A DNA stretch of 32,000 nt, taken from positions 660,001-692,000 of the forward strand of contig CAKUSQ010000001.1 in the NCBI GenBank assembly GCA_934691225.1, in the 5' to 3' direction. The translations under genes and the position numbers were made by a program. The notes beneath the pieces are model-generated. The model had not been told where the DNA came from, searched no databases, and was given only the letters and a program-made list of their open reading frames with translations. Source of the DNA: an uncultured Opitutales bacterium. GTDB taxonomy: Bacteria > Verrucomicrobiota > Verrucomicrobiia > Opitutales > UBA9783. Positions 3,639 to 29,294 of this stretch are shown piece after piece. Each line of letters begins with the position of its first letter. The first letter of the stretch is position 1.

Positions 3639-3661
3639 TTGATTTTTTATTTTGAACCTAC

Positions 3662-4100: not shown

Positions 4101-4120
4101 GTTTAGAGTGTATGTTAGGT

Positions 4121-4140: not shown

Positions 4141-4163
4141 AGTTACAATAATTTTAATAGCGA

Positions 4164-5780: not shown

Positions 5781-5791
5781 GATTGTAAAAT

Positions 5792-5968: not shown

Positions 5969-5997
5969 AATTAATATTTGTAAGAATATTGAAAAAA

Positions 5998-12021: not shown

Positions 12022-13416
12022 GTGAGGAGAATATTCATATTTTTTTTTGCAAAAGTAGCTGTATGTATGGCTATCATCGTAAGTTCGATTGGCTATGCTT
12101 ATCCTAGGTTTTTTGAAACAAAATTAACGGAAGATAAAGAAGTCGTATTGTTTAGGCCTTTTGTAGCTAGGTATAAATATAATTTGCATGGAAATTATCG
12201 TGAAGAAAATTATTTGCTGTATCCATTAGGTCGAGAGTATCGTCAGAAAGGCCATTTATACTGGAGTACTTTGTTGGGTTTGTTTAATTATGAACTCAGG
12301 GAAACCGATCGTAGGTTGCAAGAGGGGGCGTTTTATCCTTTTTATTTTTTTAAGAAGGGATTTAGTAAAGAAGCTGATTATGCTGCTATTTGGCCATTAG
12401 GAGGAACGGTTAAAAATTTTTTAGGTAAAGATCAATCCGATTGGTTTTTATGGCCGTTGTGGGTAAAAACAAAGAATAACGGAACAATTAATTACTGGTT
12501 TCCATGGCCATTTTTAAATAAATGTACAGGAAATGCAGATGGTTTTGGATTTTGGCCATTGGGAGGACATTTTTTTCAAAAAGATGTGTATGATAAGCGT
12601 TATGTGCTTTGGCCTTTGTTTTATCATCATGCGTATTTTCAGGATAACACAATTAAGAAAGGTTTTTTGCCATTTTATGCGTACGAATATAGTCCTAATG
12701 TTAAAGATTTATCCATTTTTTGGCCTATTTGGGGGCATCGTTGGGAAAAAACACCGCGCTACGAAGAGCATCGTATTTTGTGGCCATTATGGGTTCAAGG
12801 ACGAGGGGTAGAACGCAATGTGAATCGTTGGGCCCCTTTTTACACACATTCGGAAAATAAACGTTTAAAGCATGAAAAGACGTGGTATCTATGGCCTTTG
12901 ATTAAACATCAACGTTGGGAAGAGCGTGGAGTTGATGTCCAACAAGAACAGTTTATGTACTTTATTTTTTGGCATCAGGAACAAAAAGATTGTAAAACGA
13001 AAAAATTTTTGGCAAGGAAAACACATTTTTGGCCGTTTTATAGTTATTGGGAGAATAATCAAGGCTGCAAACAATTACAAATGTTGAGTCCTTTTGAAGT
13101 TTTTTTTCAAGGTAATAAAGTGATTCAGGATGTTTATACACCTTTGTTTAGTTTGTATCGTTACAATGAAAATAGCTATGGTGTTGAACAGAGTTTTTTG
13201 TTCAATATGTTTCGTGAAAAAAGGACGATGAATGATGAAGTAACAATGAATTTTAGTTTTTTGTTGGATTATAAAAATACGCAGCAAGAAAAATCAATTT
13301 CGTTATTGAAAGGTTTGTTTGAATATAAGAAAATTAACAATGAAAAATCCTTGAAATTATTTTGGATGAGATTGAAAAAAAATCAGACAAGCAAAAAGGA
13401 TTGTAAAGTTTTATGA
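12022..13416 (+). CDS. Secreted aromatic-Pro (WP) repeat protein of unknown function, first gene of the mla-type array
   Basis: 464 aa from a GTG start. Signal-peptide-like N-terminus is MRRIFIFFFAKVAVCMAIIVSSIGYA. About 15-20 tandem units of 19-22 aa are each headed by [FLIW]-[WYLA]-P-[LFI], for example IWPLGG, LWPLWV, FWPLGG, LWPLFY, FWPIWG, LWPLWV, LWPLIK and FWPFYS. Its stop overlaps the mlaE start (ATGA at 13413-13416). Confidence 0.7.
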   Translation: MRRIFIFFFAKVAVCMAIIVSSIGYAYPRFFETKLTEDKEVVLFRPFVARYKYNLHGNYREENYLLYPLGREYRQKGHLYWSTLLGLFNYELRETDRRLQEGAFYPFYFFKKGFSKEADYAAIWPLGGTVKNFLGKDQSDWFLWPLWVKTKNNGTINYWFPWPFLNKCTGNADGFGFWPLGGHFFQKDVYDKRYVLWPLFYHHAYFQDNTIKKGFLPFYAYEYSPNVKDLSIFWPIWGHRWEKTPRYEEHRILWPLWVQGRGVERNVNRWAPFYTHSENKRLKHEKTWYLWPLIKHQRWEERGVDVQQEQFMYFIFWHQEQKDCKTKKFLARKTHFWPFYSYWENNQGCKQLQMLSPFEVFFQGNKVIQDVYTPLFSLYRYNENSYGVEQSFLFNMFREKRTMNDEVTMNFSFLLDYKNTQQEKSISLLKGLFEYKKINNEKSLKLFWMRLKKNQTSKKDCKVL

Positions 13417-14945: not shown

Positions 14946-15934
14946 AAACAAAGTATGAAAGTATTCGCGTAATTCTGTTTGCCGTATTTGGGTTATTCCT
15001 AATGTATGTTGTTTATTCAGCGTTGAATAACTTATCTGTTTCGCGACATGACAGTTACAATATTAAAGCACTTTTTACCGATTTAAAACAATTGCAAATC
15101 GGCGATGATGTTAGGATTGCGGGTGTTCGTGTAGGAAGCGTTACCCATACTTATCTTAATAAGGGTTTGGCTGTAGCTGTATTGAGCATAGAAAAAAAAT
15201 ACGCTATACCTGAAGATTCTGTCGCTACTATTTTAATGGCTGGATTGTTGGGAGCGAATTATATTTCTATTGTTCCAGGAATCTCAACAAATATGATGGA
15301 TGAATCAGGTTTTTTAGAAACGCAAAAAGTTTCGGATGTTTCTTCAGTGATTCAAAAATTTAGTTCTATCGGTGATCGATTGAATCGAATTTTGTCAGGA
15401 TTTGATGGAAGCGATGAAGGTGATGCCTCAGGAAGGCCTAATTTGTTTCAGGAATTGGGTGATTTCTTCCACAATAATAAAGATAAATTAGAAAAAATTG
15501 TGGACAATATTTCAGAGATTACCGGAAAGATTTCAGAAGGGCAGGGGACTTTGGGCCGACTTATCAATGAGGATCAAGCTTACAATGATTTGTTAGATAC
15601 CATGCAGTCTATAAAAACAGCTGCACTTAAGGTGGATTCTATATTGAAAAATTTTGATGATATTTCCAAAAACATAAAAGATGGTGACGGATTGCTGTGC
15701 AAATTAATTTCAGACGAAAAAACAGCGCAATCCTTTGAAGAAATCTTAAACAATATTAAGTCGTTTTCAAATAAGTTAAATAGTGAAAATAGCACTTTGG
15801 GACGTATCATTTCAAATGATGATTTGTATAAGCAGGCAGAAGCAACTTTAGGAAAAGTCGAAAAAGCTGTGGATAGCGTTTCAAATTCAGGCCCTATCAC
15901 TGCTGTTGGAGCCGCTGCAAGTGCATTATTTTAA
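14942..15934 (+). CDS. mlaD: MlaD/MCE-domain protein with a long helical C-terminal extension
   Basis: It has one N-terminal TM segment (VILFAVFGLFLMYVVY). The MCE domain reads IKALFTDLKQLQIGDDVRIAGVRVGSVT...AGLLGANYISIVPG. About 190 aa of helical, coiled-coil-like sequence follow. Its start overlaps the mlaF stop. Confidence 0.8.
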   Translation: MKTKYESIRVILFAVFGLFLMYVVYSALNNLSVSRHDSYNIKALFTDLKQLQIGDDVRIAGVRVGSVTHTYLNKGLAVAVLSIEKKYAIPEDSVATILMAGLLGANYISIVPGISTNMMDESGFLETQKVSDVSSVIQKFSSIGDRLNRILSGFDGSDEGDASGRPNLFQELGDFFHNNKDKLEKIVDNISEITGKISEGQGTLGRLINEDQAYNDLLDTMQSIKTAALKVDSILKNFDDISKNIKDGDGLLCKLISDEKTAQSFEEILNNIKSFSNKLNSENSTLGRIISNDDLYKQAEATLGKVEKAVDSVSNSGPITAVGAAASALF

Positions 15935-15941
15935 TACAAAG

Positions 15942-17111
15942 ATGCATTTTAATTTAACTAAATCTTCTTTTGAAAAATGTTGTAAGTATTATGAAGAGAT
16001 AGCAGAGGTAGAAAAACGTTTTGATCGTATCCAAGCACAAAATTTGCATCCATTGGATAAAATTTATATCCTTTTGCAAACATGTAAATTAGGTACACTT
16101 AATTTTTCACATTTGGCACGTTGTGGTTTCATTGCTAGTTCGTTTTTAAAATCATTTGTAACAAAAGGTATTATTTCTGAGGAAGAAAAGACGGCACTTA
16201 TAAATAATATTCAAACGATTACAGGACAATTTTTTGAAAAAACGCAAGAAGCTATAATGGGTAATATTTCAAAAGAAGATTGCATTCAAACCTATGGCCA
16301 TTTGCGTCCTGGTACGTATGATATTACTTCCCCAACTTACCGTTCAGATCCAGATAAATATTTATTTGCTAATACTTCCGTAAAGGAAAAATCTAAAACA
16401 GCTAAAACGGTATTTGGTAGCACTAAATTGGAATCAAGTTTAAAAGAATTGTTTGATATTTCTTTGGATGATTTTAAGAAATTTTTATCACAAGCTATTG
16501 CAGGACGAGAGTATTCTAAGTTTGTTTTTACACGTTATGTTTCACTTGTGTTAGATCTTATTAAAGAGATGGGTCAGTCTTACGGTTTTAGTGCGGACGA
16601 CATGTCTCATTTGCCTGTCACTGTATTTGAAGATGTTAGAAATGGGTTATATTCTGTAAAAGATGTAAAAAATTTGTTTAAATCTATCATTGAACCAGGT
16701 AAAGAGTACGATCGAGTTATACAAAGTATAGAATTGCCACCATTGATAAAGCAAACAGAGGATTTTTATTCATTTTTTGTTCCAAAAACATTGCCTAATT
16801 TTATTGGGGATAAGTGTATAGAAACGGAATTGATTTATTTAAAAAATTCAATGCATACAGATGGAGTTTGCTTAAAAAATAAGATTGTTTTAATTGAAAA
16901 AGCAGATCCAGGTTTTGATTGGATTTTTAATTACGGAATTGCTGGACTTATTACAGCTTATGGGGGTCCTAATTCTCATATGGCGATTCGAGCAGCTGAA
17001 TTTCATTTGCCTGCTAGTATTGGTGTGGGGTCATCATTGTTCGATAAGTTAAAAACTGCACAATTTGTTCAATTAGACTGTTCAGCTCATAGGCTTAATG
17101 TTATTCGGTGA
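15942..17111 (+). CDS. PEP-utilising-enzyme family protein, central domain plus C-terminal phosphohistidine swivel domain. It resembles the C-terminal half of a Cj1418-type L-glutamine kinase and has no ATP-grasp domain.
   Basis: The C-terminal motif GLITAYGGPNSHMAIRAAEFHLPASIGVG is the PEP-utilising mobile-domain signature, with the His codon at 16977-16979. The track start at 15906 is a TTG inside mlaD. The first ATG is at 15942, 7 nt after the mlaD stop. No nucleotide-binding domain is encoded upstream. Confidence 0.65.
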   Translation: MHFNLTKSSFEKCCKYYEEIAEVEKRFDRIQAQNLHPLDKIYILLQTCKLGTLNFSHLARCGFIASSFLKSFVTKGIISEEEKTALINNIQTITGQFFEKTQEAIMGNISKEDCIQTYGHLRPGTYDITSPTYRSDPDKYLFANTSVKEKSKTAKTVFGSTKLESSLKELFDISLDDFKKFLSQAIAGREYSKFVFTRYVSLVLDLIKEMGQSYGFSADDMSHLPVTVFEDVRNGLYSVKDVKNLFKSIIEPGKEYDRVIQSIELPPLIKQTEDFYSFFVPKTLPNFIGDKCIETELIYLKNSMHTDGVCLKNKIVLIEKADPGFDWIFNYGIAGLITAYGGPNSHMAIRAAEFHLPASIGVGSSLFDKLKTAQFVQLDCSAHRLNVIR

Positions 17112-17115
17112 TATT

Positions 17116-17712
17116 ATGTTAAAAGTTGGTATTACTCAACGTGTTGATTACATTGAATCCATAGGAGAAACGCGTGATGTTTTAGACCAGCGTTGGGTAG
17201 AACTACTGAAAAATAATGGGATAATTTTGATCCCTATACCTAATAAGTGTTTTGTTCAAAGCTTTATTGATGTGGTTAAGTTGAATGGAATTATTGTAAG
17301 TGGTGGAAATGATCATGCATCTCGTTTAGCTTGTGAAACGGATTGCGTTGATTACTGTTTAAAACATCAACTGCCTTTATTAGGTGTGTGTCATGGGATG
17401 CAGTTTATAGGACAATTTTTTGGTTCCCATTTGGTACGTATTGAGGAGCATGTTGGAAATTGTCATGATGTAAATATAAGAGATAATCGTTATGGAATTC
17501 CAAGAGGTAATTTTAAAGTTAACTCTTTTCATAATTTTACATTGGATAAGGTACCGAGTGTGTTTTTTGTTTTGGCAACCGATAACGCAGGACATTGTGA
17601 AGCTATGTTTCACAAAAATTTACCAGTAGTAACCTTTATGTGGCATCCTGAGCGTCCACCATTTTTGAATTGGTTTAATCATTTTATAAAGAATTTTTAT
17701 GAAGAATACTAA
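17116..17712 (+). CDS. Class I glutamine amidotransferase-like hydrolase, peptidase C26 family (gamma-glutamyl hydrolase type, Cj1417-like)
   Basis: The nucleophile elbow is LLGVCHGMQFIG, with the Cys codon at 17389-17391. The His/Glu pair is in MWHPER. Length of about 198-204 aa is typical. An alternative ATG at 17098 overlaps the upstream gene. Confidence 0.8.
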   Translation: MLKVGITQRVDYIESIGETRDVLDQRWVELLKNNGIILIPIPNKCFVQSFIDVVKLNGIIVSGGNDHASRLACETDCVDYCLKHQLPLLGVCHGMQFIGQFFGSHLVRIEEHVGNCHDVNIRDNRYGIPRGNFKVNSFHNFTLDKVPSVFFVLATDNAGHCEAMFHKNLPVVTFMWHPERPPFLNWFNHFIKNFYEEY

Positions 17713-18439
17713 GATTTTTGTTCTTTGTGCCGGTGAAGGGAAACGTTTGCGTCCGTATACAGAAGATAAACCTAAGTGTATGGTACCTTATAAAAACAAA
17801 CCATTATTGCAGTATCAGTTAGAGGTTTTTGAAAAATTTCATTTAAATGATATCACGCTTATCGGCGGGTACCACTATGAAGCTTTACCGAAAGACTTGT
17901 ACCCTGTGGTTGTTAATCATGATTTTTCAACTACCAACATGCTTTTTAGCTTGTTTTGTGCCGAAAATGATATGCCAGAAGACCACGATATAATTATAAG
18001 CTATGGAGATATTATTTACAATGCTTCTGTTTTAGAATCTTTATTAAAAGCTAACGATGCTTGCAGTATAATTACGGATATTGATTGGCGAACTTATTGG
18101 AATAATCGTATGGAAGATCCACTGAAAGATGCTGAAACATTTCGTTGGAATGTAGAAACGCGTCGTATTTTCGAGTTAGGTAAGAAGCCAAAAACACTAG
18201 ATGATATTCAAGGGCAGTATATCGGTTTATTTAAAATTGCAGCTCCATTTGTTAAAAAATTCAAGCAAATGTACGAAACATTTAAACGCACCTATCCGAA
18301 CTATAAAGATGCGTACATGACAGATTTTTTACAGTTTCTCATTAATAAAGATTTCCCAACGTTTGGTGTTCCTATACATAATAAATGGGCAGAATTTGAT
18401 ACCGTTAATGATTTAAATCTAGATATTCATTGGTTATGA
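17699..18439 (+). CDS. Nucleotidyltransferase, LicC/Cj1416-like cytidylyltransferase fold
   Basis: 246 aa. The N-terminal signature is IFVLCAGEGKRLRPYTEDKPKCMV (G-x-G-x-R-L...K-P-K), followed by YGDIIY. It overlaps the upstream gene by 14 nt and the downstream gene by ATGA. Confidence 0.8.
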   Translation: MKNTKIFVLCAGEGKRLRPYTEDKPKCMVPYKNKPLLQYQLEVFEKFHLNDITLIGGYHYEALPKDLYPVVVNHDFSTTNMLFSLFCAENDMPEDHDIIISYGDIIYNASVLESLLKANDACSIITDIDWRTYWNNRMEDPLKDAETFRWNVETRRIFELGKKPKTLDDIQGQYIGLFKIAAPFVKKFKQMYETFKRTYPNYKDAYMTDFLQFLINKDFPTFGVPIHNKWAEFDTVNDLNLDIHWL

Positions 18440-19749
18440 AAGATTTTTTAAAAAATTCGTTGTTTAACTGTTTATTACCTTGGGCATTTATTTGTTTTCG
18501 GTATAATCAATGTCATGGATATTTTGCTGAAAGCTACGAAGTTTTATTCGCTTTTTTAGGACTTATATGGCTTGTTAACATTTTTTTGTCATTTATAAAG
18601 TTACCGATTAACTTTATTGTATCTTTGTGGGTTGTCCTTATTTTACCTAATTTGTCTGGTAGCTTAATAAAGGATATTATTTATAAGATTTTTTTCGTTT
18701 TAGGGTGTACTTCTGTTATAAAGAAATCATCTACAAATCCGATTAAAATTTTACTTTCAATTATTATTGGATTTAACCTTTTTCAAATTGTTCAAAGAGA
18801 TTATTGTGCAAGAAAAACAGCTAATAAATTGATAAAAAATGTTTCTATAAATAAAAATTTTTCATGCAATGAAAACATTTATTGGATTGTCTGCGATGCT
18901 TACACAAGTTTGGATGGTTTGAAGGATTATTACCACTTTGATAATACAAAATTTTATCAAGATTTAAACGATTTAGGATTCTTAACACCTGATGGACAAG
19001 TGCCATATAAGAAAGTAAATCAATTTCCAACGTTAAAAGCACTAAATTTTTATACCAATTTTAATCATTTTGATGTTACAAAAGAAAATTCTTTGACATT
19101 ACATTATGGGTTAAAATATAACATTTTTTTTAATACTTTAGTTGCAAAAGGTTATTCATTGTGGGCAACTTATTCTAGAGCCCCGTTTTTATACAAATTA
19201 CAAAATGTGAGTTCGTTAGGGAACAAAGGTGTTTCAGTAGCTTTGCAATTTTTTTATCATTGTTTTAACCATAATAAGTTTTTAGCAAAAATAGTTTCGA
19301 AAAAACTTAATGAGCAACTGTATATTCACCAAAAGGATGTTTTTAAGTTTTTACGTTATAATTTTAAAACAACTAATAAATGTTTTTATTATATTCATAT
19401 AGATTCTCCACATGCTCCTTTTGTTAGAGGTCAAAACAATGAATTTGTAAATGATCAAAAAAGTGTCGTTTGGGGAGAAAATGAGGTTGGAACAAATGCA
19501 TATAAATTTAAAGATTACCGAAAAGGATATATAAAACAATTACAGGGATTAAATAAGAAAGTTTTGGAATTGATTAAGTTGATTTGCCAAAAGGATCCTC
19601 ATGGAGTTATCATTTTGCAAGGTGATCATGGAACATTTACAACCGATGATTTACGAGAACATCAGTCATTTTTGTTTGCTATAAAAACAAATATTGCGTA
19701 CAAATATCTTCAAACAGAACAATTTTTCAAACAGTTTATTTATGAATAG
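18436..19749 (+). CDS. Membrane-anchored alkaline-phosphatase-superfamily enzyme with the architecture of a phospho-group transferase or phosphodiesterase (EptA/LtaS/NPP-like)
   Basis: About 5 N-terminal TM segments precede a soluble domain. That domain carries the motif set IYWIVCDAY (metal Asp), NQFPTLKAL (candidate Thr nucleophile, compare the fPT.T motif of NPPs), YYIHIDSPHAPF (D-x-x-H) and ILQGDHGT (DHG). The ATG at 18436 overlaps the upstream stop. The track start at 18430 is a TTG. Confidence 0.6.
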   Translation: MKDFLKNSLFNCLLPWAFICFRYNQCHGYFAESYEVLFAFLGLIWLVNIFLSFIKLPINFIVSLWVVLILPNLSGSLIKDIIYKIFFVLGCTSVIKKSSTNPIKILLSIIIGFNLFQIVQRDYCARKTANKLIKNVSINKNFSCNENIYWIVCDAYTSLDGLKDYYHFDNTKFYQDLNDLGFLTPDGQVPYKKVNQFPTLKALNFYTNFNHFDVTKENSLTLHYGLKYNIFFNTLVAKGYSLWATYSRAPFLYKLQNVSSLGNKGVSVALQFFYHCFNHNKFLAKIVSKKLNEQLYIHQKDVFKFLRYNFKTTNKCFYYIHIDSPHAPFVRGQNNEFVNDQKSVVWGENEVGTNAYKFKDYRKGYIKQLQGLNKKVLELIKLICQKDPHGVIILQGDHGTFTTDDLREHQSFLFAIKTNIAYKYLQTEQFFKQFIYE

Positions 19750-20962
19750 TATGAGAATTATGATTTTTATATTTATTTTGTTTCTTGTAATAGAACATTT
19801 TTTAAAAAAATATTTAATTAAAACAGGGTTGTTCCTTAAAGAATTTCCTAACATTGATAAGAGGATAATAAATCGTTATAAGACATTTGATAAAGTATTG
19901 GGTTGGAAACCTATACCTACTCTAAATCATCCGGACAATACAGGATCGTACATAGGTATAAATTCAGGAAGTTTTTTTTCTATAAATGAATTCGGTAGTA
20001 GATTTTTTAAAAATTCTTTTTCTTCAAAATACATAGCGACATTTGGAGATTCTTTTTGTATGTGTAGGGAAGTAAACGATGATTGTACATTTCAATATTT
20101 TTTATCACAACAAACTAATTCTTTCGTTTTTAATTATGGAGTTGGTAATTATGGATTAGATCAAGCACTTTTAAGATTCGAAACAACTAAATTGCCTCCT
20201 TCGGTAAAACATGTGATAATGGTAATAACCCCTTGGACAATAGAGAGAATTATCAGTATTTGGAAACACTACTGCGAACCAGGTAATTTGTTAGCTGCAA
20301 AACCAAGATTTGTATTGGAAAATAAAAAATTAAAGTTAATCGATAATTTTATTAAGAATACTAGTGATTTTTTAAATTTAAAAAAATATAAGGATTTTTT
20401 ACATAACTATGACGGTAATTATTGTTTTTTTTATCAACAATTAAAAACATTTCCAAAAACAGCATTAGGATATTTATTTTCCAATCCAGATGCTATAAAA
20501 TATATTTTAGCTGTAAGTAAAATAAAAAGCATAAAACTTGAAGAAAAAAATAGAAAGGAAGCTATAGGAAGCTTTTTAAAGCAATCAGAACCATTTTTAT
20601 TAAAAAAGTTTTATCAAGAAAATCAATATTTACAATCCTTATATGATAAACAAAAGGAGTTATTAAAAAATATATTGAAAAGGTTTGTAGAGTCTTGTGT
20701 TAACGATGATAAGGTACCGTATTTAGTATTTTTACCATCATATTCGCATGTAAAATTTATAAAACAAGGAAATCCTTTGTATAGAAATATAGTAAATCCC
20801 ATATGTGAAGGGATTGGATTGAATTTTATAGATGGATTTAATTTTTGGAAAACGTTTGATGAAGACGAATTAAAAAATTGTTACATAGATACTTATGGCC
20901 ATCATTCAAAAATTGGGAATAAGTATATAGCTGATTTGATTTATAAAACGTGGTTTATTTAA
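19742..20962 (+). CDS. Signal-anchored SGNH/GDSL-like hydrolase or acyltransferase, family assignment tentative
   Basis: N-terminal anchor is MNSMRIMIFIFILFLVIEHF. Block I is IATFGDSFCMC, a Gly/Asn block is NYGVGNYGLDQ, and the C-terminal D..H block is YIDTYGHHS. The track start at 19694 is a TTG. The ATG at 19742 overlaps the upstream stop by 8 nt. Confidence 0.55.
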   Translation: MNSMRIMIFIFILFLVIEHFLKKYLIKTGLFLKEFPNIDKRIINRYKTFDKVLGWKPIPTLNHPDNTGSYIGINSGSFFSINEFGSRFFKNSFSSKYIATFGDSFCMCREVNDDCTFQYFLSQQTNSFVFNYGVGNYGLDQALLRFETTKLPPSVKHVIMVITPWTIERIISIWKHYCEPGNLLAAKPRFVLENKKLKLIDNFIKNTSDFLNLKKYKDFLHNYDGNYCFFYQQLKTFPKTALGYLFSNPDAIKYILAVSKIKSIKLEEKNRKEAIGSFLKQSEPFLLKKFYQENQYLQSLYDKQKELLKNILKRFVESCVNDDKVPYLVFLPSYSHVKFIKQGNPLYRNIVNPICEGIGLNFIDGFNFWKTFDEDELKNCYIDTYGHHSKIGNKYIADLIYKTWFI

Positions 20963-20972: not shown

Positions 20973-21998
20973 TCAATAAAGTAACCAGAATTTTCTTTGA
21001 TTAAAGAAATTGTAATTAACTTGTGTCTATCTTGCATTTATACGAGCGATAGAATCATCAGTTAAAAGACCGGAAGCCAAAAGTTGAGCAATTTTCATCT
21101 CCAATAATGGTTCTAGCGACGGATAAATACTCAGATAATCTTTGATTATCGTTTTGTGCATATGGATATGAAATTGCCATGCAGAAAAAAAGCTATTGTA
21201 CAACTATACCCAAATACACTTTCAAAGCAAGGAATGTTGAGTGAAGGGGGCATGCCGCGTGAAACCTGGCTGTTTTTCTTGCTAACTCCATAACTTATCT
21301 GGTTTGTAATTCTCCATTTTTATAATTTGTAAGGGACATTTAGACGTGCCTAAATTCTTGACTATTGAACCTGGAATGTTTAAAACAGAAAAGTTAACGT
21401 GTGGTTGGTAGTTTTTTATTAACATTGTAGCTAAGTTATCCATGTAAAAATTGAATAATAAAGCCACCTGTATAGCTTTGTAGTTGAGGTTCCAGTAAAG
21501 CTCCAGATAGAGGATTAGGACGCTTTAAAATGAAAACCTTTTTTTTAAATGTAAGCAGGTTTCTAAAGTATAACGCATACAAGTTATGTATGTGTAACAT
21601 CAAACACTTACATCCACTAGATCTATTACTAAAGTATCAATGTTGTCAAATATAGCAGATTCTATTTTTTTTGTATTATTTTTATATAAAGAATTTTTAT
21701 AAGTGTCATCTTTTACAGCTTCTCCAGCTTTTGCACAGCCCGTAAGTCTATGTTCTGGAGAAAAAAAGCAGCTTACGCGACTGAATAGATTTCCTTGTTA
21801 ATCTTGATTGGCATCTGCAAAAATATCACTTGTAGGAATATTTTTGGAACTTGTAGCGGACACATGTGTTAAAACACCTATTTTTCTCCCACAGTTTTTT
21901 AAGTCATTAAAATTACGCTCTATGAGGCAATTTACCTCCAATTTCAGTGGCTCTGCATATAAAACTGATGTGAGCGTAAAACAGAAAATTATTACCAT
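20973..21998 (-). pseudogene. Degraded DUF1343 / NamZ-like (exo-beta-N-acetylmuramidase family) gene
   Basis: Hand translation across frames recovers the family blocks in order. These are signal peptide plus LKNCGRKIGVLTHVS, FFSPEHRLTG, IDTLVIDLVDVSV*CYTYI, VFILKRPNPLSG, SYTGGF..LHG and a C-terminal QRKFWLLY*. Disruptions are a stop at 21798-21800, an in-frame TGA at 21600-21602 where the family has Arg, and at least two frameshifts. Confidence 0.75.
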
Positions 21999-22285
21999 GA
22001 CTGATTTTGCTTGTAATTTATGCGATGTTATTTTGCAAAAATGGTAACTGCCGAAAATATCGATGAATATGAACAGCGGATGTTGGAAAATTTAAAAACA
22101 TTTGAAATAAAAGAACATTACCCTCATATAGATTCTTTAGAGGATTTAATTCAGCAAAATGCCAAAATAAGTAAGTACTAGATCAAGTAAGAAGTTAGAT
22201 CAAACTGCTTATTACACCCTTACAATTCTCGAGAACAAATTTTCACTGATTGGAATGAACATATAAGTTCATTCTGCAATAAAAG

Positions 22286-22888: not shown

Positions 22889-23932
22889 ATGTATCAAAAA
22901 TTAATACGTAAAATTATTATTGGTTTATTTTTAACCATATCTTCGCATGTTTTTGGCATAAAATTTGAAGATTTATCTTCTTTGCAGAAGCAAATACATG
23001 CGCTTTTATTCCAAATTGCTCGACAGGAAACACAAGATAAGGAAAATCATTTTGCGGTTGCTCTAGAAATCGTTACGAACACACCAGAAAAAACATACGT
23101 ATTTTTATTGAAAAATATAAGACACAGGATTTCGTTTATTTCAGAAGGTACAAGTGAGATAGGAAAAGATAGGAAAAGGGTACACAATAACCTTTATGGA
23201 AAAGAACGTGATGATTTTGATAAAAAAGATTGTAAAGTTCCTAATGGAAGACGTTGCAAATACGTTAATGCAATAACTAAAGAATGTGGTTGTTGGGGAT
23301 ATGAAAGACAAGAATCATGTTATTGTTATAGAAAAGGATTTTTTGATAGTGAATTTGCATGTATTGCTTTTTTAGAAAATAATAAAGAATGCATCGCTGA
23401 TTTTATTAATAAGCAAATAAAGGGTAAAGTCACAAAAATTTCCTTGCATGGATTTACGACGCGAGATACATGCAGTGCATGTTTTCAACATTTAAAGTCT
23501 TATTGCAGAAATGCTAATCGTGAGTTTCATGACAGAAAGGATTTTAAAATTAAGTGTACAGAAAACATTCCGGAGAATAAAGAAACTTTCTGGAAAAAAC
23601 TAAAAAGTACATTGGGGGAAAAAGTAAAAAATTTGTCAGTTCCTGTCGATTTTTATATTTCTTCAAGGATTTATTTTAGTGGAAGCAGACGGTTAGTAAG
23701 ACCTATGGTGGATGACAAAAATATAGACAATCCTATGAAAATGCTTGTTTTGAGGAAGGAATTTGTCAAAGGACAAGAAGAAATAACAGACGCATTCACA
23801 TGTAATTTAGATGGAGATTTTTGTAGTTATTTGAATGAACAAGAACAGCATTTAAAAGCTATAAATGACCAAATAAATAAGGACCGCACAGACGTAGGCG
23901 TAATAGACATAAGCGATCAGATAAATAAGTAA
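22889..23932 (+). CDS. Hypothetical secreted Cys-rich protein with a weak deaminase-fold-like motif pair
   Basis: 347 aa with signal peptide MYQKLIRKIIIGLFLTISSHVFG. The Cys-rich core is CKVPNGRRCKYVNAITKECGCWGYERQESCYCY. It is followed by FDSEFACIAFLE, 39 aa of spacer, then TRDTCSACFQHL. A strong terminator follows the gene. Confidence 0.6.
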   Translation: MYQKLIRKIIIGLFLTISSHVFGIKFEDLSSLQKQIHALLFQIARQETQDKENHFAVALEIVTNTPEKTYVFLLKNIRHRISFISEGTSEIGKDRKRVHNNLYGKERDDFDKKDCKVPNGRRCKYVNAITKECGCWGYERQESCYCYRKGFFDSEFACIAFLENNKECIADFINKQIKGKVTKISLHGFTTRDTCSACFQHLKSYCRNANREFHDRKDFKIKCTENIPENKETFWKKLKSTLGEKVKNLSVPVDFYISSRIYFSGSRRLVRPMVDDKNIDNPMKMLVLRKEFVKGQEEITDAFTCNLDGDFCSYLNEQEQHLKAINDQINKDRTDVGVIDISDQINK

Positions 23933-23999: not shown

Positions 24000-24045
24000 A
24001 ATTAAATAGTAACGAGCATAATTGATAGTTGAAAGAAAAGTATAA

Positions 24046-24300
24046 GTGTTTCTTATATATTGTTTAGACAGGCATGTATTAGCGGATAATGGTTCTCGAG
24101 TTGCATTTTATTGGGAAAATGAAAAAGGCAATTGTCGCATCATTACTTATAAGGATATGTACGATGAAGTTAATCGTTTAGCTAATTATTATAAATCTAT
24201 TGGCTTAAAAAAAGAGATCGTATCGCTATTTATATGCCTGGCTATGTTAGCGGTCGAGCAGATGAAATGGTATCATTAGCAGATAAAGTATCGATGAAAG
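24046..24300 (+). pseudogene. acs: Remnant of acetyl-CoA synthetase (AMP-forming), N-terminal ~85 codons only, frameshifted
   Basis: CLDRHVLADNGSRVAFYWENEKGNCRIITYKDMYDEVNRLANYYKSIGLKKE, then a frameshift to (R)IAIYMPG. This matches the conserved Acs N-terminal block (NCLDRH..NGD..AIIWEG....ITY.EL...V.RFAN.L...G.KKGD.VAIYMP). The remaining ~550 codons are absent. Confidence 0.7.
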
Positions 24301-24479
24301 TGGAATCTACGTTGTGTTTCAGTGGTATCTTTTATTGGTATACGAACTTTGACAATCAAAATAAAAAATGCAGTTTCTTTAACATCAAATATTTAAAGCC
24401 TGTAGCATTTTCAAAATTAATTATTTTTTCAGGAATTCACTGTGTTATGTGCTAATATCTATGGAACAGTTAAAGAGAT

Positions 24480-24929
24480 TCATGATAATAGATTACAGTA
24501 CTTCTTAGAAATAGTAGATGCAATCATTAACAGCACAATAGATACCCATAATTTGCTAGGATAAAATCTTAGTTTATAAGTAAGTGAAAAAACAGCACAA
24601 TACATTCCCATTATAAAAAGTGGGGAAGTACACGGTTGCTTAGCTATAAAAGCTGACAAAGATTTCCATAAATAAAACATCGTAAAATTGAAAGGAACAA
24701 GCAATAAAAGGTACAGCAAATAAAACGGAGCATTCTCAAAACAACAAAAAACAAGCCCAATAAAAGCATTAATAAAAGAAACAAAATTTACTGAAATACT
24801 TTTTTGTAGTATCAAATGAGGCCAAAATCTAAACCAATGAAATAAACAGAGTGCTAAGAACAAATATTTGTAAGAAACGTAAAAAAATAACAATAAAAAC
24901 AATAATAACGATGTAATTTTATTAAACAT
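24480..24929 (-). CDS. Hypothetical polytopic membrane protein
   Basis: 149 aa with 4-5 hydrophobic segments. Its ATG overlaps the end of the upstream oxidoreductase remnant. No family motif was recognised. Confidence 0.5.
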   Translation of the reverse strand: MFNKITSLLLFLLLFFYVSYKYLFLALCLFHWFRFWPHLILQKSISVNFVSFINAFIGLVFCCFENAPFYLLYLLLLVPFNFTMFYLWKSLSAFIAKQPCTSPLFIMGMYCAVFSLTYKLRFYPSKLWVSIVLLMIASTISKKYCNLLS

Positions 24930-25313
24930 AATCTACAAAATTATCTACTTTAAACATACCACCATCATTCAACGTTAAAACAAAGACATTGTGTATTTTC
25001 TTGTGTGTTTTTAACAATTTATATGAAAACTCACTAGATCTAAAACAAGCAATAGCAATTATGGTTGCCAGAGAAGTATGTCCGCCTAACAAATAGCCAA
25101 ATTGCTCCGTCGGTGAATAGCAAATACTTTCTTTTAAAATACCATCTCAGAGAATATATCAACACCATAAGTGTTGCTTACATTATCCAAAGCGTCTTGT
25201 CTGGTATCGTACAAATAAACAATCATCTCCTGTTTATTGCATTGATGGAAATAATTTAATGCTTTCAAGTAACGTTGACCTGCAAAACCTGCCCCGAATA
25301 ATGCTACTTCCAT
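24922..25313 (-). pseudogene. Remnant of a Gfo/Idh/MocA-type NAD(P)-dependent oxidoreductase, truncated and frameshifted
   Basis: An ATG at 25311-25313 overlaps the upstream stop (TAATG). It opens MEVALFGAGFAGQRYLKALNYF...IVYLYDTRQDALDNVSNTYGV, a Rossmann GxGxxG N-terminus, and stops after 59 codons. A second frame continues to 24922. Total length of about 130 codons compares with about 330 for the family. Confidence 0.5.
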
Positions 25314-25819
25314 TATAATTGCTCCAGTAAATTTTTATCTTCGTTTAATTGTGTTTTATTCACAAAAAAACTTGGGATTTGATTCATGAGATAGAAGTGA
25401 TACCGTCTAACGATACTATCCTTGGGATGTTGTTGAAGCAATTTATCAAATACTCGCAAGCTTTGTTCCATATAGACTAATTTTTGAGATAGATTAGGTT
25501 CAATATTAGATTTCAATGCTAAACAGTAAGCTTCACAAATAGAACGTTGCAAATCCGTGAGTTGCAAGTTTTTTATTTGTTTTTCTGTATAATTAAGTCC
25601 AATATAGCCGCCTTGTAGCGCATTGTTAGATAAAATTTTTAAAACTTCATCTAATGGTTCTACATTAGAAACATCTTGAAAATGCATTTCACCATTTGTT
25701 TTTTTTAAACGATTTACATTATGCGGATTGTTTTGCAAATAAAAAGCAACACCACATGCAACTATGAACAACACAAATATTATATTCCCGACTTTTAATA
25801 TAAACGTTTTATTGATCAT
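25313..25819 (-). CDS. Hypothetical protein with a single N-terminal TM anchor
   Basis: 168 aa. The anchor is VGNIIFVLFIVACGVAFYL and the rest is helical and soluble. It lies in an operon position between the FabZ-like gene and the oxidoreductase remnant. Confidence 0.55.
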   Translation of the reverse strand: MINKTFILKVGNIIFVLFIVACGVAFYLQNNPHNVNRLKKTNGEMHFQDVSNVEPLDEVLKILSNNALQGGYIGLNYTEKQIKNLQLTDLQRSICEAYCLALKSNIEPNLSQKLVYMEQSLRVFDKLLQQHPKDSIVRRYHFYLMNQIPSFFVNKTQLNEDKNLLEQL

Positions 25820-25825
25820 GTCGTT

Positions 25826-26251
25826 TTAGCGAAAGCTTATAATAATTTCTCCTCCTGCCACGAGTGTTTCGTTTTTATAAGCAGCGACTTTTGCTTTACA
25901 AAAATCTTCATATAAACCTAAACAAGTTGCTTCTGTTGTTAAAACAACACCTGGTTTAATCTTTTCAAAAAATTTTACATTACATTTTGCCATATATCCA
26001 AGGTCGGATTTAAGGACTTTTTCAGTTTTTGAATAAAGCATAATTCCAATCGTTTGTGCCATCATTTCTATTATTATATTACCTGGCAAAACCGGATTAT
26101 TAGGAAAATGCCCTTGAAAGAACCATTCGTTATAAGTAATCGCCTTAGATGCTTTTGCAAACTTTAAATAGTCACACGAGATGATCTTATCTATAAATAA
26201 AAATGGATATCTCTGAGGAAGACACTGAATAACATCTAAACTATCCATCAA
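25826..26251 (-). CDS. Hotdog-fold 3-hydroxyacyl-ACP dehydratase, FabZ-like
   Basis: 141 aa. Motifs are LPQRYPFLFIDKI and WFFQGHFPNNPVLPGNIIIEMMAQ, which include the catalytic His and Glu blocks of FabZ/FabA. Confidence 0.8.
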   Translation of the reverse strand: MMDSLDVIQCLPQRYPFLFIDKIISCDYLKFAKASKAITYNEWFFQGHFPNNPVLPGNIIIEMMAQTIGIMLYSKTEKVLKSDLGYMAKCNVKFFEKIKPGVVLTTEATCLGLYEDFCKAKVAAYKNETLVAGGEIIISFR

Positions 26252-26510
26252 TTTTATTATCTATCAAGTAATCTACAATATTATCTATCGTTCTCAACTT
26301 CCAATAATCTTCAATTTTAATGTGGAAAGTTTCTTCAATTTGTGAGACCAATTCCACAACATCTATGGACTCCAATCCTAATCCATCAGAAAATAATGAA
26401 ACGTCTGTTTTTATTTCATCTTTTCTAAAACCATCCGGGTCAATAATTTCCCGAACTATATTAGTAACAGCCTCTTTGTAATGCTGCTTTAATTCCAATT
26501 TATTCATCAT
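26241..26510 (-). CDS. Acyl carrier protein (phosphopantetheine attachment site)
   Basis: 89 aa and acidic. The motif DGLGLESIDVVELVSQIEETF is a (D/G)LG(L/F)(D/E)S-type Ser attachment motif. It overlaps the FabZ-like gene by 11 nt. Confidence 0.8.
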   Translation of the reverse strand: MMNKLELKQHYKEAVTNIVREIIDPDGFRKDEIKTDVSLFSDGLGLESIDVVELVSQIEETFHIKIEDYWKLRTIDNIVDYLIDNKIDG

Positions 26511-26696
26511 ATCTTAATAAAGAACAAAACAAACTTGCATCTTAAGTAAATCATATTAAAATAAATTGCAATACATTTTTAATATTTTGGCATAAATTTA
26601 CACTACCCCTTTTATTAATTTTCCTAAAGAATACTATAAATCTTGTAATTTTATTGTGTAAAAATATTTCCCAACAACCCAATAACGTTTTTAATC

Positions 26697-27961
26697 CTAA
26701 CTTTTAACAACTTTGCATTTCGGTTTGTAATTTGCTATACAATTGCGGGTGTCCACAATACATTTTGCATTTTTAGCAATCATTTCGTAGGGTACACTAT
26801 TATGCGATGTAAGCATCAAGCAAACATCATAGCTTTTTATCGTATTTTTAGACAAATTGATACATTTTTTACCTGTTAATTGTGAAAAATTACGAGTGTT
26901 TGGAATTTCAGGTACATAAGGATCATAATAGTCAAAATTTATCCCTAATTGTTGTAGTCTTTTAATGATAGGAAATGCTGGCGATTCTCTTAGGTCGCAA
27001 ATATTCGCCTTATAAGCCAAACCAAATACTAAAACACTGGAACCTTTGGCAGATTTTTATTGATCGTTTAACGCATTAACAACTTTTTCAACCACAAACT
27101 GATGCACTTTAAAATTGATTTCACCTGCAAGCTCAATGAATCGTGTATGCATTTCATATTCTTTTGCTTTCCAAGTTAAGTAAAATGGATCTACAGGGAT
27201 ACAATGTCCACCAATTCCAGGTCCTGGATAAAATGGCATAAATCCATAAGGTTTTGTTTTGGCGGCATCAATTACTTCCCAAACATCAATTGCCATGCGA
27301 TCACAAATCATCTTTAATTCGTTAATTGCAGAAATATTGATGGCTCTAAACGTGTTTTCCCAAATTTTTACCATTTCCGCAGTTGAACAAGTAGAAACAG
27401 GAACAAGTTGTTCTACAAATTTAGAATATAAAACCATTGCCTTGCTTTTACAAGCTTCTGTTACTCCACTAATAATTTTGGGAACATTATCAAAGTTCGA
27501 CAAAGGATTCCCTTGATCTTCACGTTCTGGAGAATATCCCAGGTAAAAATCAACACCAACTTTGCCGAAAGCTTTTTCCAAAACAGGTAACATTACTTCT
27601 ATTGTTGTTCCTGGATATGTCGTAGATTCAAGCATAACCAAAACACCTTTAGAAGCATTTTCAGCAATGGATTTTACACTCGATTCGATATAAGATAAAT
27701 CTGGCGTATGTTGTTTAGTTAGTGGTGTTGGTAAACAAATGATACCAGCTTCAGCTTCTTTTAGTATCGTAAAGGAAGAGGATAATTTTAACTTTCCAAC
27801 CTCTATACAATTAGGAAAGTTGGAAACATCCAGTATGGAAATTTTATTGATACCTTTAGATAAATCTTCAATTCGATCCCTATCGCAGTCAATCCCTTTT
27901 CCAAGCAACGCTTCAATAAAGAACAACCGACATAGCCTAATCCTATAACTGCTACGTTCAT
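26697..27961 (-). pseudogene. Nucleotide-sugar dehydrogenase (UDP-glucose/GDP-mannose dehydrogenase family, WecC/TviB-like), disrupted by one frameshift and one in-frame TAA
   Basis: The ATG at 27959-27961 gives MNVAVIGLGYVG (Rossmann) in one frame. The frame shifts near 27870-27880 to ...RIEDLSKGINKI...ICLPTPL...LESTTYPGTT...YSPERE...GGHCIPVDP (catalytic Cys). TAA at 27057-27059 is in frame with the C-terminal domain ...SSVLVFGLAYKANICDLRESPA...YYDPY. Confidence 0.8.
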
Positions 27962-29294
27962 TTCTAAAATGTTACGTTTAAGATCTGTACTTTTTATCCT
28001 TTAAATCAAAATACATCCCAAACAAAAAACTTATATCTGTACCATAAGTATATGCACTTTTTTCTTAAAGCAAGAAAAATTTTCATTAGCGACAATTTTA
28101 AAAAATGTAACATCATGAAACCGTTAGGATAATTTGAAACAAAAACCAACAAAACCACCCCACCAAAGTGTAAAATAATTGGGCTTGGATCGGGGCTTTT
28201 AATAGAGTACCCCTACCATCAAATTGGATTTTGTAATTATTGCGTAAGCGAATTGTGGAGTTTACAGAAATATAATACGATAAAGGAACCTGGAATTAAG
28301 ATTTGCCTTCAAGGTTTTTTTGACCTTCGTTGGGCAGTAAATTTAAGGAAATTAGATTACTGTTACAGAAATATAAATATCACCAATAATATTACTATTG
28401 CTTTTTCGATTTCCTTAAATTTCTGGTTCGTTTTCAGCTAGCGCATTAAAATTTAAATTCAGCCCTATTACGATTAACAATAATTTCTTAAAATTCATAA
28501 ACATAATATATATCTTTTCATAGCTCAAACGGATTAAATTACCTGTCTGAGTCAAGATTAATTATAAAAAAATTCACAAAAAAGTAAATATCTTTTTGAA
28601 AAATAGCAAAAATTTTATTTGACGGATGTTTTTTAAATTAAAAAATCTGCCGGAATACGAAAAAATTACAGAAACCTTCTAAAAATTTTGCTAACCAAAT
28701 TTAATTTACCAAAAGAAGCCAAAACTCATCTAGCCAAAGCCCTGAAGAGCATAACATGCTCAGGTTTCTTTCGATATAATGCACTAACAAACATCGATCA
28801 CTATTTTATCACACAAAATTGCTTGCATTTGGTCTTTTGGCCTCAAGTTCTCAAAAATTTCCAACCTAAGCATTTCGTAATCCAGCGATTCTTCATTTGA
28901 AATGTTCTTCAAGCAGTTTTTTGTGAAAATCTCATGCTTTGTGGCATTTAAAGCCGATTTAGCTTTTCCTAATTCTGTCTGCAGCTTCGTTGATAACTAC
29001 GTATTTTTCCGATTTGCCGATAATTTTTGTAATGATAATGTTACTATACCTGTTATTATCGGAGAAAAGAAGAGAAAATGAAAAAAATATTCGAGGTTTT
29101 TAGCAATTTATGAGCCAATCGAATACATTGATTTGCTTAATGCCGTCGTAATTGAATGTGCCATAGTTGCGTGTTAGAAAGAATTTGGGATAATGATCCA
29201 AAATGTTATTTAAAGGAGCCAATTTTGGCAGTAAAGGAGAAGTTTAACTGTTTTTTGATAAATTTCTTTACAAAAATATTATATTAGTTTACTG

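Follow-up and report, generated by a model that had tools for sequence, protein, structure and literature searches.

In a stretch of DNA of 32,000 nucleotides from an uncultured Opitutales bacterium (GenBank assembly GCA_934691225.1, contig CAKUSQ010000001.1, positions 660,001 to 692,000; hereafter the window, in whose own coordinates its features are given), two overlapping genes were analyzed which, on the grounds of sequence and modelled fold, encode a divergent membrane protein of the alkaline phosphatase (AP) superfamily (gene 1) and a membrane-tethered SGNH-like protein (gene 2). Judged by gene neighbourhoods, the tie of both gene families to glutamine-kinase/CDP-amidate (cytidine diphosphate-amidate) genes in other phyla is real. 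The genes for glutamine kinase, hydrolase and cytidylyltransferase (nucleotidyltransferase) are referred to together as the trio. O-methyl phosphoramidate (MeOPN) is a rare surface decoration with a phosphorus-nitrogen bond and is found on the capsule of Campylobacter jejuni. With a probability of about 0.5, the pair would be the intact tail of an operon that attaches a phosphoramidate-type head group to a glycan or lipid of the cell surface, by a relay via an AP-type intermediate at Thr199. In the window this operon is interrupted by a deletion.

A divergent membrane protein of the alkaline phosphatase superfamily

Gene 1 (18436..19749, + strand) extends from an ATG at 18436 to a TAG ending at 19749 and codes for an AP-like membrane protein of 437 amino acids (aa). 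Its start codon is overlapped by the stop codon TGA (18437-18439) of the nucleotidyltransferase gene, and its own stop codon (19747-19749) lies inside ATGAATAG, where gene 2 begins. Both open reading frames (ORFs) and both overlapping junctions (ATGA and ATGAATAG), to which a first-pass annotation of the letters had drawn attention, proved real on reading of the sequence, and the four motifs listed there for gene 1 are present: VCDAY (D154), FPTLKAL (T199), IDSPHAPF (H326) and QGDHG (D397, H398).

Relatives of gene 1 form a small close family (34 matches), and a few distant ones (P0021, P0031, P0033, also those of loci L021 and L179) reach the Pfam family Sulfatase (PF00884). Gene 1 itself had no Pfam or NCBIfam match at E ≤ 1, PF00884 and the Ept/LtaS models included, the sole match for the gene 1/gene 2 pair being a spurious one to YmgD, and the family profile gave marginal sulfatase matches (E about 1) against PDB sequences. 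When 27 sequences with identities as low as 18% are aligned, the invariant residues are Y149, D154, L177, F182, T199, H321, P325, H326, P328, Y365, Q368, Q395, D397, H398 and G399. The possibility raised in the first-pass annotation, that metal ligands would turn out not to be conserved on proper alignment, was thereby not borne out for D154, T199, H321, H326, D397 and H398. A conserved loop, YNQxHGYFAE, lies between helices 1 and 2.

The AlphaFold2 (AF2) model from this alignment (predicted local distance difference test, pLDDT, 91.0; predicted template modelling score, pTM, 0.89) begins with five helices (residues 2-133) and continues as an alpha/beta catalytic domain in which D154 closes strand 148-153, T199 opens helix 198-207, H326 stands after strand 316-322 and D397-H398 after strand 391-396. 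On conservation and model, T199 is proposed as nucleophile and D154, H321/H326 and D397-H398 as metal or phosphate ligands. In a Foldseek search against the PDB 90 matches were obtained at E ≤ 1e-3, and all 50 that were listed belong to the AP superfamily; the best solved ones are EptC (1.4e-06), EptA (2.3e-06), MCR-1, LtaP/LtaS, ICR, YejM/PbgA and sulfatases. Foldseek probability was 1.00, yet template modelling (TM) scores ranged only from 0.30 to 0.47 and identity from 8 to 14%. Because fold matches and invariant metal and nucleophile residues coincide, the gene 1 product is placed, as far as sequence and model can indicate, in the AP superfamily, as a divergent member of the EptA/LtaS/sulfatase branch with a threonine-type active site, and the membership in this superfamily that was suggested earlier is backed by the same two lines of evidence.

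An SGNH fold in the second gene

Gene 2 (19742..20962, + strand; ATG 19742, TAA 20962) codes for a protein of 406 aa, whose AF2 model (pLDDT 94.1, pTM 0.92) consists of a single hydrophobic helix at the N-terminus and an SGNH core, into which a helical segment is inserted at about residues 207-321. Foldseek retrieved CgnD (4.7e-05) and the GDSL protein 4RSH (1.4e-04) from the PDB, then PatB, DltD, TesA and acetyl-xylan esterases, so that the label SGNH-like, given at first from the letters alone, is confirmed by modelled fold and structural matches. No Pfam or NCBIfam match was found at E ≤ 1 (PF13472 and PF00657 included); a precomputed PF13472 match exists for a minority of the relatives.

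In the family alignment of 122 sequences the motif G102-D103-S104 (GDS, block I) is conserved, with S104 kept in 121 of them. G135-N136 is invariant and was assigned to the oxyanion blocks II/III by sequence position. H387 is likewise invariant, with no conserved Asp at -3 as in the DxxH of block V, the nearest conserved acid being D364 (98%). Of the two motifs pointed out previously, GDS was thus upheld, and in the D..HH block the histidine H387 was upheld as well, but not D382, which is not conserved. Gene 2 is accordingly described as SGNH by its predicted fold and by three of the four sequence blocks. The family further possesses basic residues that are invariant or at least 95% conserved, namely R87, R109, R145, R169, K175, H176 and K187.

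Membrane topology

Hydropathy strongly supports four of the five gene 1 helices and the first transmembrane helix (TM1) only weakly. Charges were counted as segment means across the close family. Mean K+R / D+E amounts to 2.1 / 0.27 for the N-terminus, 0.45 / 1.5 for loop 1-2, 0.8 / 0 for loop 2-3, 0.2 / 1.1 for loop 3-4, 3.3 / 0 for loop 4-5 and 4.9 / 1.9 for the 22 residues after TM5. The first five segments alternate as would be the case with a cytoplasmic N-terminus, five transmembrane helices and an outside domain. The five transmembrane helices of the first-pass annotation are found in the model, but TM1 is weakly hydrophobic and the side of the catalytic domain is ambiguous by charge. 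A periplasmic catalytic domain is favoured because of the analogy to EptA/LtaS and because membrane-bound and soluble AP proteins occur together in four loci.

In the SGNH family the helix begins at residue 1, and mean K+R rises from 0.2 on its N-terminal to 2.4 on its C-terminal side; two transmembrane helices occur in some members, and none in fusions with LicD or TPR domains. The catalytic domain is predicted from this charge distribution to be cytoplasmic and tethered to the inner face of the membrane, which renders the earlier description of gene 2 as signal-anchored doubtful. A cleavable signal peptide was considered and rejected, as the protein is hydrophobic from residue 1 and the family has almost no positive N-region.

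A truncated kinase and a deletion of 3,781 bp upstream of the pair

The pair is preceded by what had been taken for a CDP-amidate trio. Hydrolase and nucleotidyltransferase are indeed present, but the first gene (15942..17111, + strand; NF004508, PF00391) is only the remnant of a Cj1418-type L-glutamine kinase. With 389 aa from a new ATG it represents the C-terminal 389-401 aa of a 990-aa enzyme and covers profile positions 409-788 of the 789 of NF004508 (395 bits, cut-off 501). The central region and the phosphohistidine domain of the PEP-utilizers (phosphoenolpyruvate; PF00391, residues 325-393) are kept, and the PPDK_N ATP-grasp domain and the N-terminal extension are missing. The class-I glutamine-amidotransferase-type hydrolase (17116..17712, + strand; alternative ATG at 17098; NF045546, PF00117, PF07722) has gamma-glutamyl-CDP-amidate hydrolase (Cj1417 type) as its best family (NF045546, E=3e-33), at 115.5 bits and hence below the cut-off of 250. 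The nucleotidyltransferase (17699..18439, + strand), in the Cj1416 position of the trio, matches the generic NTP_transferase models PF12804 and PF00483; its closest solved relative is LicC, a CTP:phosphocholine cytidylyltransferase (PDB 1JYK, E=3.8e-14), and it is 57-62% identical to the gene at the same position in Puniceicoccales/Opitutales loci. Searches of PDB sequences with the trio returned no Cj1416-Cj1418 structures; the matches were confined to LicC and to GMP-synthase-type relatives, and the kinase had none.

The cause of the truncation became apparent by blastn of the intact sister locus L003 against the window and by reading of the junction sequence (15933..15941, no strand assigned). 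The window corresponds to L003 minus positions 2409-6189 (3,781 bp), the ends being joined at an AAT[A/G]CAA microhomology right after the mlaD stop codon. This deletion took out a methyltransferase gene, a TagF-like transferase gene and approximately codons 1-597 of the kinase, its ATP-grasp part included, and a difference of 2 bp beside the junction creates the ATG at 15942 in frame with the remnant. The genotype recurs in L087 plus 13 similar places and also in L088 and L090, that is in at least 14 human-gut assemblies, Hadza included, and an identical AP-like protein was found on 20 contigs. As the identical protein on 20 contigs comes with the same layout in L087 (plus 13 places) and L090, an assembly error can be dismissed.

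Following the domain logic of PEP-synthase-type enzymes, a kinase without ATP-grasp domain is not expected to phosphorylate glutamine. On this sequence evidence CDP-amidate is probably no longer made and the pathway is off in this genome, and the five-gene block that had been proposed for expression in the first-pass annotation could not, as its genes read, make CDP-amidate. The AP-like/SGNH pair would then either have been orphaned recently or act on some other donor. No homologue of the APS (adenosine 5'-phosphosulfate) kinase, TagF-like, methyltransferase or formyltransferase-like genes of the locus type was detected in the 32-kb window.

The intact locus and its variation among sister strains

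L003 (GCA_944389485.1) is an intact sister strain with 96-97% nucleotide identity to the window over common regions. Its gene order is mlaE-mlaF-mlaD, a methyltransferase (- strand, split), a TagF-like transferase (PF04464, 372 aa, - strand), and then, on the + strand, the 990-aa kinase, hydrolase, nucleotidyltransferase, AP-like gene and SGNH-like gene. The kinase is full length (NF004508, 886.6 bits; 838 bits for that of L094). The pair had been supposed to replace the transferases of Campylobacter; this is contradicted by intact relatives, in which a TagF-like (PF04464) transferase and an S-adenosylmethionine (SAM) methyltransferase stand immediately upstream. By tblastn, Cj1415-type APS kinase was absent from the window, L001, L003, L004, L007-L010, L021, L042 and L093.

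Other sister strains are damaged in other ways. L001 and L002 share an independent 853-bp internal deletion in the kinase gene, by which the phosphohistidine domain was lost, in addition to a frameshifted TagF-like gene, and in L088, which shares the 3.78-kb deletion, the kinase remnant is frameshifted by a further indel of 7 bp. Sister strains also have a small ORF and a formyltransferase-like gene in place of the SGNH gene, which is hence a swappable cassette. Fragments of this pair persist downstream of the SGNH gene in L008 and L093. The ORFs of 129/131 aa and 291/284 aa after the AP-like gene in L001/L004 were considered as a frameshifted SGNH gene; this was rejected, as they are a different conserved pair, the larger being formyltransferase-like.

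This pair (L001 11307-12564; L004 11283-12529; downstream of the AP-like gene in L007, L009 and L042; L021 6734-7767) consists of an ORF of about 130 aa and a protein of about 290 aa with the formyltransferase N-domain motif VHPGFLPYTRG (PF00551 9.6e-05, TIGR00460 1.3e-05). It is common to sister strains, Puniceicoccales and one Flavobacteriaceae trio cluster at the SGNH position and may indicate an N-acylated or otherwise different head group. Long-form kinases of about 1,000 aa (L003, L093, L096, L100, L103, L181) have an N-terminal extension of about 208 aa that is absent from forms of 780-800 aa; in L003 (4398-5030) it gave a weak MobA-like NTP_transf_3 match (E=0.0027).

Genomic context of the SGNH-like family

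Among clusters at 50% identity, the SGNH-like family has 909 representatives at E ≤ 1e-30, and distant members (about 30% identity) adjoin the same trio in other phyla. A metagenome-assembled genome (MAG) of the Rhodospirillales has the order kinase, hydrolase, nucleotidyltransferase, sulfatase-family protein, APS kinase and SGNH. In Halorhodospira halophila a LicD::SGNH fusion and then a sulfotransferase-like gene come after the trio, and one metagenome contig bears the trio and a LicD::SGNH fusion only. The Halorhodospira locus (L096 2698-10630, CP000544) comprises an AAA_33-type kinase, a glutamine-kinase homologue of 1,022 aa, hydrolase, cytidylyltransferase and the fusion, in which the SGNH serine is replaced (GDG), and ends with a Sulfotransfer_3-like protein (5.7e-05); a sulfotransferase fold would suit a 3'-phospho-nucleotide donor.

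For a wider survey, 80 metagenome loci were found with the SGNH alignment, 28 of which have at least 4 kb on both sides. Two or more trio genes were present in 53 of the 80 and in 26 of the 28. The undescribed module on the CDP-amidate pathway, as suggested in the first-pass annotation, is therefore supported in its genomic tie, but not as a replacement, and the pathway is broken in the window. A tblastn search of the SGNH-like protein against plasmids yielded one archaeal 'hypothetical protein' with no trio nearby.

All ORFs of the loci were clustered, and 46 loci with full trio and SGNH, within L099-L177, were sorted by type. Type I (19 of 46) has APS kinase (Cj1415 family), usually a methyltransferase and sometimes a TagF-like gene. 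Type II (23 of 46) has one to four soluble AP-superfamily proteins (PF00884, with a conserved Thr in an 'apyT' motif, and DHG), which lack transmembrane helix and signal peptide; four of these 23 loci also carry a membrane AP-like protein of the gene 1 family. Four loci fit neither type. APS kinase and AP-type protein were never together in any of the 46 (19 versus 23), an exclusivity that suggests two alternative routes downstream of CDP-amidate. The Cj1415-type kinase is also present in L094.

Genomic context of the AP-like family and of TagF-like relatives

The AP-like family was surveyed by a scan of species-representative genomes, which gave 80 loci with flanks read over 10 kb. Apart from the strains of the window itself, there are six Puniceicoccales/Opitutales loci (L007-L010, L042, L093) in which the AP-like gene, 38-40% identical to gene 1, lies where the cytidylyltransferase gene ends or right behind it, and the trio genes are 44-62% identical to those of the window; kinase, hydrolase, TagF-like gene and methyltransferase are conserved in MAGs of these orders at 44-74% identity. 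The Flavobacteriaceae locus L021 contains a co-oriented block of kinase, hydrolase, nucleotidyltransferase, small ORF, formyltransferase-like, TagF-like and AP gene, the latter 29% identical to gene 1. There (8966-11143) the AP-like protein is a fusion, in which an N-terminal YidC/Oxa1-type 60KD_IMP domain (PF02096, 3.8e-25) precedes the Sulfatase domain, and many TagF-like relatives bear the JGI name 'YidC/Oxa1 family membrane protein insertase'. In the widespread lineage L004-L006 (41% identity) the 10-kb flanks are free of the trio; what remains is the AP-like gene, a fragment of a methyltransferase gene and the pair of small ORF and formyltransferase-like gene.

Two contexts recur in the broader AP-like family. 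An Anaerolineae operon, found complete or incomplete in about 19 loci, consists of a PF02348 cytidylyltransferase, AP, (AP), 2-hydroxyacid dehydrogenase, AP, SDR, MptE-like and GT2 genes; in the second, observed in 19 loci, the AP-like gene is paired with one for a protein of about 466 aa without annotation. In the Anaerolineae loci L023, L030, L041, L050 and L072, two to five paralogous AP-like membrane proteins per operon were observed, their genes interleaved with PF02348 cytidylyltransferase and 2-hydroxyacid dehydrogenase and mostly also with SDR, MptE-like and GT2 genes.

Relatives of the TagF-like protein (37-46% identical to that of L003) lie in CMP-aminoethylphosphonate (CMP-AEP; CMP, cytidine monophosphate) clusters with PEP mutase, Ppd and PntC-aminotransferase in three of four sampled loci, and each of these three clusters has a membrane-anchored AP-superfamily neighbour. 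Membrane AP-like proteins are paired with TagF-like enzymes in phosphoramidate as well as in aminoethylphosphonate clusters. PEP-mutase::NTP_transf_3 fusions (L094 1-1651, L180 4391-6028, L182 9190-10788) adjoin phosphoramidate-type or TagF-like/AP-type genes. As read from gene content, phosphonate and phosphoramidate tailoring clusters have parts in common, and a similar mix was reported in a preprint on Borgs (10.1101/2024.11.05.622173).

Selection and decay

Compared with L003, the ratio of nonsynonymous to synonymous substitution rates (dN/dS) was 0.03-0.04 for mlaF and mlaD, 0.07 for the kinase remnant, 0.12 for the SGNH-like, 0.19 for the nucleotidyltransferase, 0.23 for the AP-like and 0.29 for the hydrolase gene. 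Values this far below 1 mean that the remaining genes are not old pseudogenes. For the pair itself the status of pseudogenes was rejected, given dN/dS of 0.12-0.23 and frames intact on all contigs. G+C content is 25-29% over 18-21 kb as against 32-37% in the preceding 10 kb, and scans for promoters and terminators stayed at chance level.

Elsewhere in the window (4164-4895, 27057-27926, 21000-22280 and 24000-29000) several genes look truncated, among them one of 243 aa that has kept only the PolyA_pol head domain and one for a UDP-glucose dehydrogenase of 289 aa without C-terminal domain, and long stretches are poor in ORFs of at least 100 aa. An AMP-binding gene of 953 aa in L001 is matched in the window by no more than short fragments, and further genes lying close behind it in L001 are unmatched. 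These observations suggest ongoing genome erosion. Two proteins without Pfam match are conserved in sister strains: a W-P-L repeat-rich one of 464 aa (12022-13416) just upstream of mlaE, and a Cys-rich one of 347 aa (22889-23932) with an N-terminal hydrophobic segment. Genes for tRNA-Ala(GGC) and tRNA-Leu(CAG) adjoin at 3563-3747.

Proposed function and alternative explanations

In the relay that is proposed here, kinase, cytidylyltransferase and hydrolase would make CDP-amidate in the cytoplasm, and a CDP-dependent enzyme at the inner membrane face would install the head group on a membrane-bound intermediate. The installing enzyme would be TagF-like here, LicD in some other lineages, or possibly the cytoplasm-facing SGNH-like protein. 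The AP-like enzyme would then shift the head group to an envelope acceptor on the outer face via a covalent Thr199-phospho intermediate, at a metal site presumably formed by D154, H326, D397 and H398, as in EptA, LtaS and OpgB. These three enzymes use head groups first placed on lipids by CDP-dependent chemistry. CDP-dependent installation followed by AP transfer would also resolve the difficulty noted in the first-pass annotation, that known AP-type transferases use lipid donors and not CDP-linked ones.

Several observations weigh against this relay. Its donor, acceptor and product are all inferred, and the reading of the trio as CDP-amidate genes follows from family matches of which two are below curated cut-offs or generic. 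The strongly basic segment after TM5 together with the weak TM1 lets a model with four transmembrane helices and a cytoplasmic domain score about equally well, and it follows from the soluble AP homologues in many trio clusters that cytoplasmic AP-type chemistry is feasible within the pathway. The metagenome loci were collected by way of their SGNH genes, so that SGNH implies the trio and not the reverse, and the trio occurs without SGNH in L007, L009, L042 and L021. The AP-like gene is intact in two lineages without trio or kinase (L004-L006 and that of the window), and its retention after such loss fits a trio-independent function. Members of the broader AP-like family (20-30% identity) mostly stand without the trio in the 10-kb flanks, as in 72 of 80 loci. 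A co-occurrence of the pair with the trio, proposed as a check in the first-pass annotation, accordingly holds for SGNH but not throughout for the AP-like gene, given L004-L006 and these 72 loci. The refuting condition named there, genes found independently of the trio, thus applies in part.

One alternative, which seems unlikely to us, is that the AP-like and/or the SGNH-like enzyme is itself the phosphoramidate transferase, acting directly from CDP-amidate in place of Cj1421/Cj1422 through a covalent phosphoramidyl intermediate at Thr199 or Ser104. Soluble Thr-type AP enzymes are the only other recurrent pathway-specific proteins in 23 of the 46 full-trio loci, with APS kinase and TagF-like genes absent from the flanks; methyltransferases cluster with loci of the APS-kinase type, and eleven further loci combine trio, APS kinase and SGNH, usually with a methyltransferase and without a TagF-like gene in the flanks. 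The seven additional basic SGNH residues, invariant or at least 95% conserved, are as expected for a nucleotide-diphosphate ligand, and the SGNH domain is predicted on the side where CDP-amidate is made. Nucleotide pyrophosphatases, moreover, are AP-fold enzymes with a Thr nucleophile that attack nucleotide-linked phosphates, as is generally known. The transfer step of C. jejuni is itself uncharacterised in vitro (PMC12409886, PMC11800397). On the other hand, the intact locus of this lineage includes a TagF-like CDP-dependent transferase, a LicD phosphotransferase domain is fused to SGNH in two loci, in one of which GDG makes Ser104 chemistry dispensable, the AP-like protein is closest to the periplasm-facing EptA/LtaS enzymes, and the SGNH gene is swapped for the formyltransferase-like pair in sister strains. 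In its general form, that the SGNH-like family and Thr-type AP proteins are the missing enzymes passing phosphoramidate from CDP-amidate to surface acceptors, one of them via covalent Ser104/Thr199, the proposal is a doubtful one. If true, phosphoramidyl-Ser104/Thr199 would mean a donor class not known for either superfamily, and MeOPN-type phosphorus-nitrogen decorations would be common among bacteria and archaea of the environment and the gut instead of being confined to Campylobacter.

It is quite improbable that the AP-like protein is an ordinary EptA/LtaS/OpgB-type enzyme with phosphatidylethanolamine or phosphatidylglycerol as donor, independent of CDP-amidate, and the SGNH-like protein a separate accessory esterase or acyltransferase. 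Lipopolysaccharide, glucans or another envelope polymer would then be the acceptor, and the gene would simply sit in a glycan-modification island. The best fold matches are lipid-donor transferases, the AP-like gene has been kept identical on 20 contigs after loss of kinase, TagF-like and methyltransferase genes and persists in L004-L006 with no trio in the 10-kb flanks, 72 of 80 wider-family loci lack the trio, and the window has other surface-polysaccharide genes (UDP-glucose dehydrogenase, DegT aminotransferase). An independent role is opposed by the position of the AP-like gene directly after the cytidylyltransferase in the lineage of the window and in six Puniceicoccales/Opitutales loci, within a trio cluster in Flavobacteriaceae and directly after a different cytidylyltransferase (PF02348) in the repeated Anaerolineae operon, by membrane AP-superfamily proteins recurring beside TagF-like genes in CMP-aminoethylphosphonate clusters and, as regards SGNH, by the trio genes in 26 of 28 loci. 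That both genes are functionless leftovers of a decaying locus, their intact frames reflecting only a recent deletion, is somewhat unlikely. The locus erodes in several ways among strains of at least 95% nucleotide identity (the 3.78-kb deletion, the 853-bp kinase deletion and TagF frameshift in L001, the split methyltransferase in L003, the 7-bp indel in L088), dN/dS of the glutamine amidotransferase, cytidylyltransferase and AP-like genes (0.19-0.29) exceeds that of the neighbouring mla genes (0.03-0.04), and other genes of the window look truncated. Nevertheless, these ratios lie well below 1, both ORFs are full length in every covering assembly of the deletion genotype, and the new in-frame ATG of the kinase remnant right after mlaD could mean that the operon is still expressed.

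Significance and comparison with known systems

The instance in the window is a decaying remnant, while the two families lack annotation, occur widely and are closely tied to a pathway that is solved only in part. That Cj1416-Cj1418 make CDP-amidate is established (PMC11800397), and four donor-making enzymes are known, whereas transfer and methylation had not been reconstituted in vitro as of 2025 (PMC11800397, PMC12409886). O-methyl phosphoramidate has so far been identified only in Campylobacter according to a 2019 review (PMC6429109), where it shapes phage recognition and host interaction (PMC3907429, PMC3417653). The genes for donor synthesis are widespread (the SGNH family alone numbers about 900 clusters at 50% identity) and come with two unannotated partner families, and the SGNH-fold family and AP-superfamily proteins are new candidates for the unsolved transfer step. 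Membrane AP-type enzymes may cooperate with TagF-like transferases on cytidylyl-activated head groups, aminoethylphosphonate included, which would possibly be a wider rule. The repeated hits in the kinase gene of sister strains resemble the on/off switching of MeOPN in Campylobacter. Caution applies to the genome studied here, whose locus is broken by deletion and whose five-gene block is not expected to yield a modification.

With the MeOPN cluster of C. jejuni (Cj1415-Cj1422) the locus shares the kinase type with PPDK_N and PEP-utilizers domains (NF004508), the NF045546-type amidotransferase, the nucleotidyltransferase, in intact relatives a SAM methyltransferase, and adjacent donor-making genes amid surface-polysaccharide genes. 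It differs in that a Cj1415-type APS kinase is absent from the window, the sister and the Verrucomicrobial loci examined, in that about 208 aa with weak similarity to NTP_transf_3 are added at the N-terminus of the L003 kinase and the kinase of the window is truncated, and in three additional components: an AP membrane protein, a TagF-like transferase, and a cassette that is either SGNH-like or formyltransferase-like. No Campylobacter entries were among the 120 best matches to the SGNH-like protein or among the 120 best of 1,362 to the TagF-like protein. Eight named-cluster look-ups for Cj1421/Cj1422 returned no Campylobacter and only 'hypothetical protein'; in the literature on these two proteins their function is given, and a statement of their fold was not found.

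Gene 1 has in common with EptA/MCR-1/EptC and LtaS/OpgB a multi-helix N-terminal membrane domain followed by a catalytic domain and, with the EptA/LtaS group, an Asp ending strand 1, a Thr opening a helix, the motif H-x-P and, behind the last core strand, a D-H pair. It deviates by an identity of only about 10-14%, TM-scores of 0.30-0.47, the lack of a PF00884 or NCBIfam match, a much shorter length (437 aa), the YNQxHGYFAE loop and the location of its gene directly after a cytidylyltransferase gene. Gene 2 shares the SGNH core, the GDS serine, the Gly/Asn oxyanion pair and a C-terminal histidine with PatB, the C-terminal domain of OatA, DltD and CgnD, and with DltD also the single N-terminal membrane helix. 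Unlike these, it has a catalytic domain predicted to be cytoplasmic, a large helical insertion, no conserved Asp of DxxH and extra basic residues, and its family stands almost always beside glutamine-kinase/CDP-amidate genes and is sometimes fused to LicD.

The logic of the whole locus is that of the LicC/LicD (phosphocholine), TagD/TagF (glycerol phosphate) and PntC (aminoethylphosphonate) systems, in which a cytidylyltransferase activates a head group and an enzyme of LicD or TagF type transfers it. For the CMP-AEP clusters LicD-like phosphotransferases and glycosyltransferases only were named, and a membrane AP-superfamily partner was not mentioned (PMC6697681). LicC is the closest solved relative of the cytidylyltransferase of the window, and TagF-like proteins of the subfamily seen in the intact locus occur in CMP-AEP clusters too; the locus further differs from the LicC, TagD and PntC systems in the head group, which is presumed here to be a phosphoramidate.

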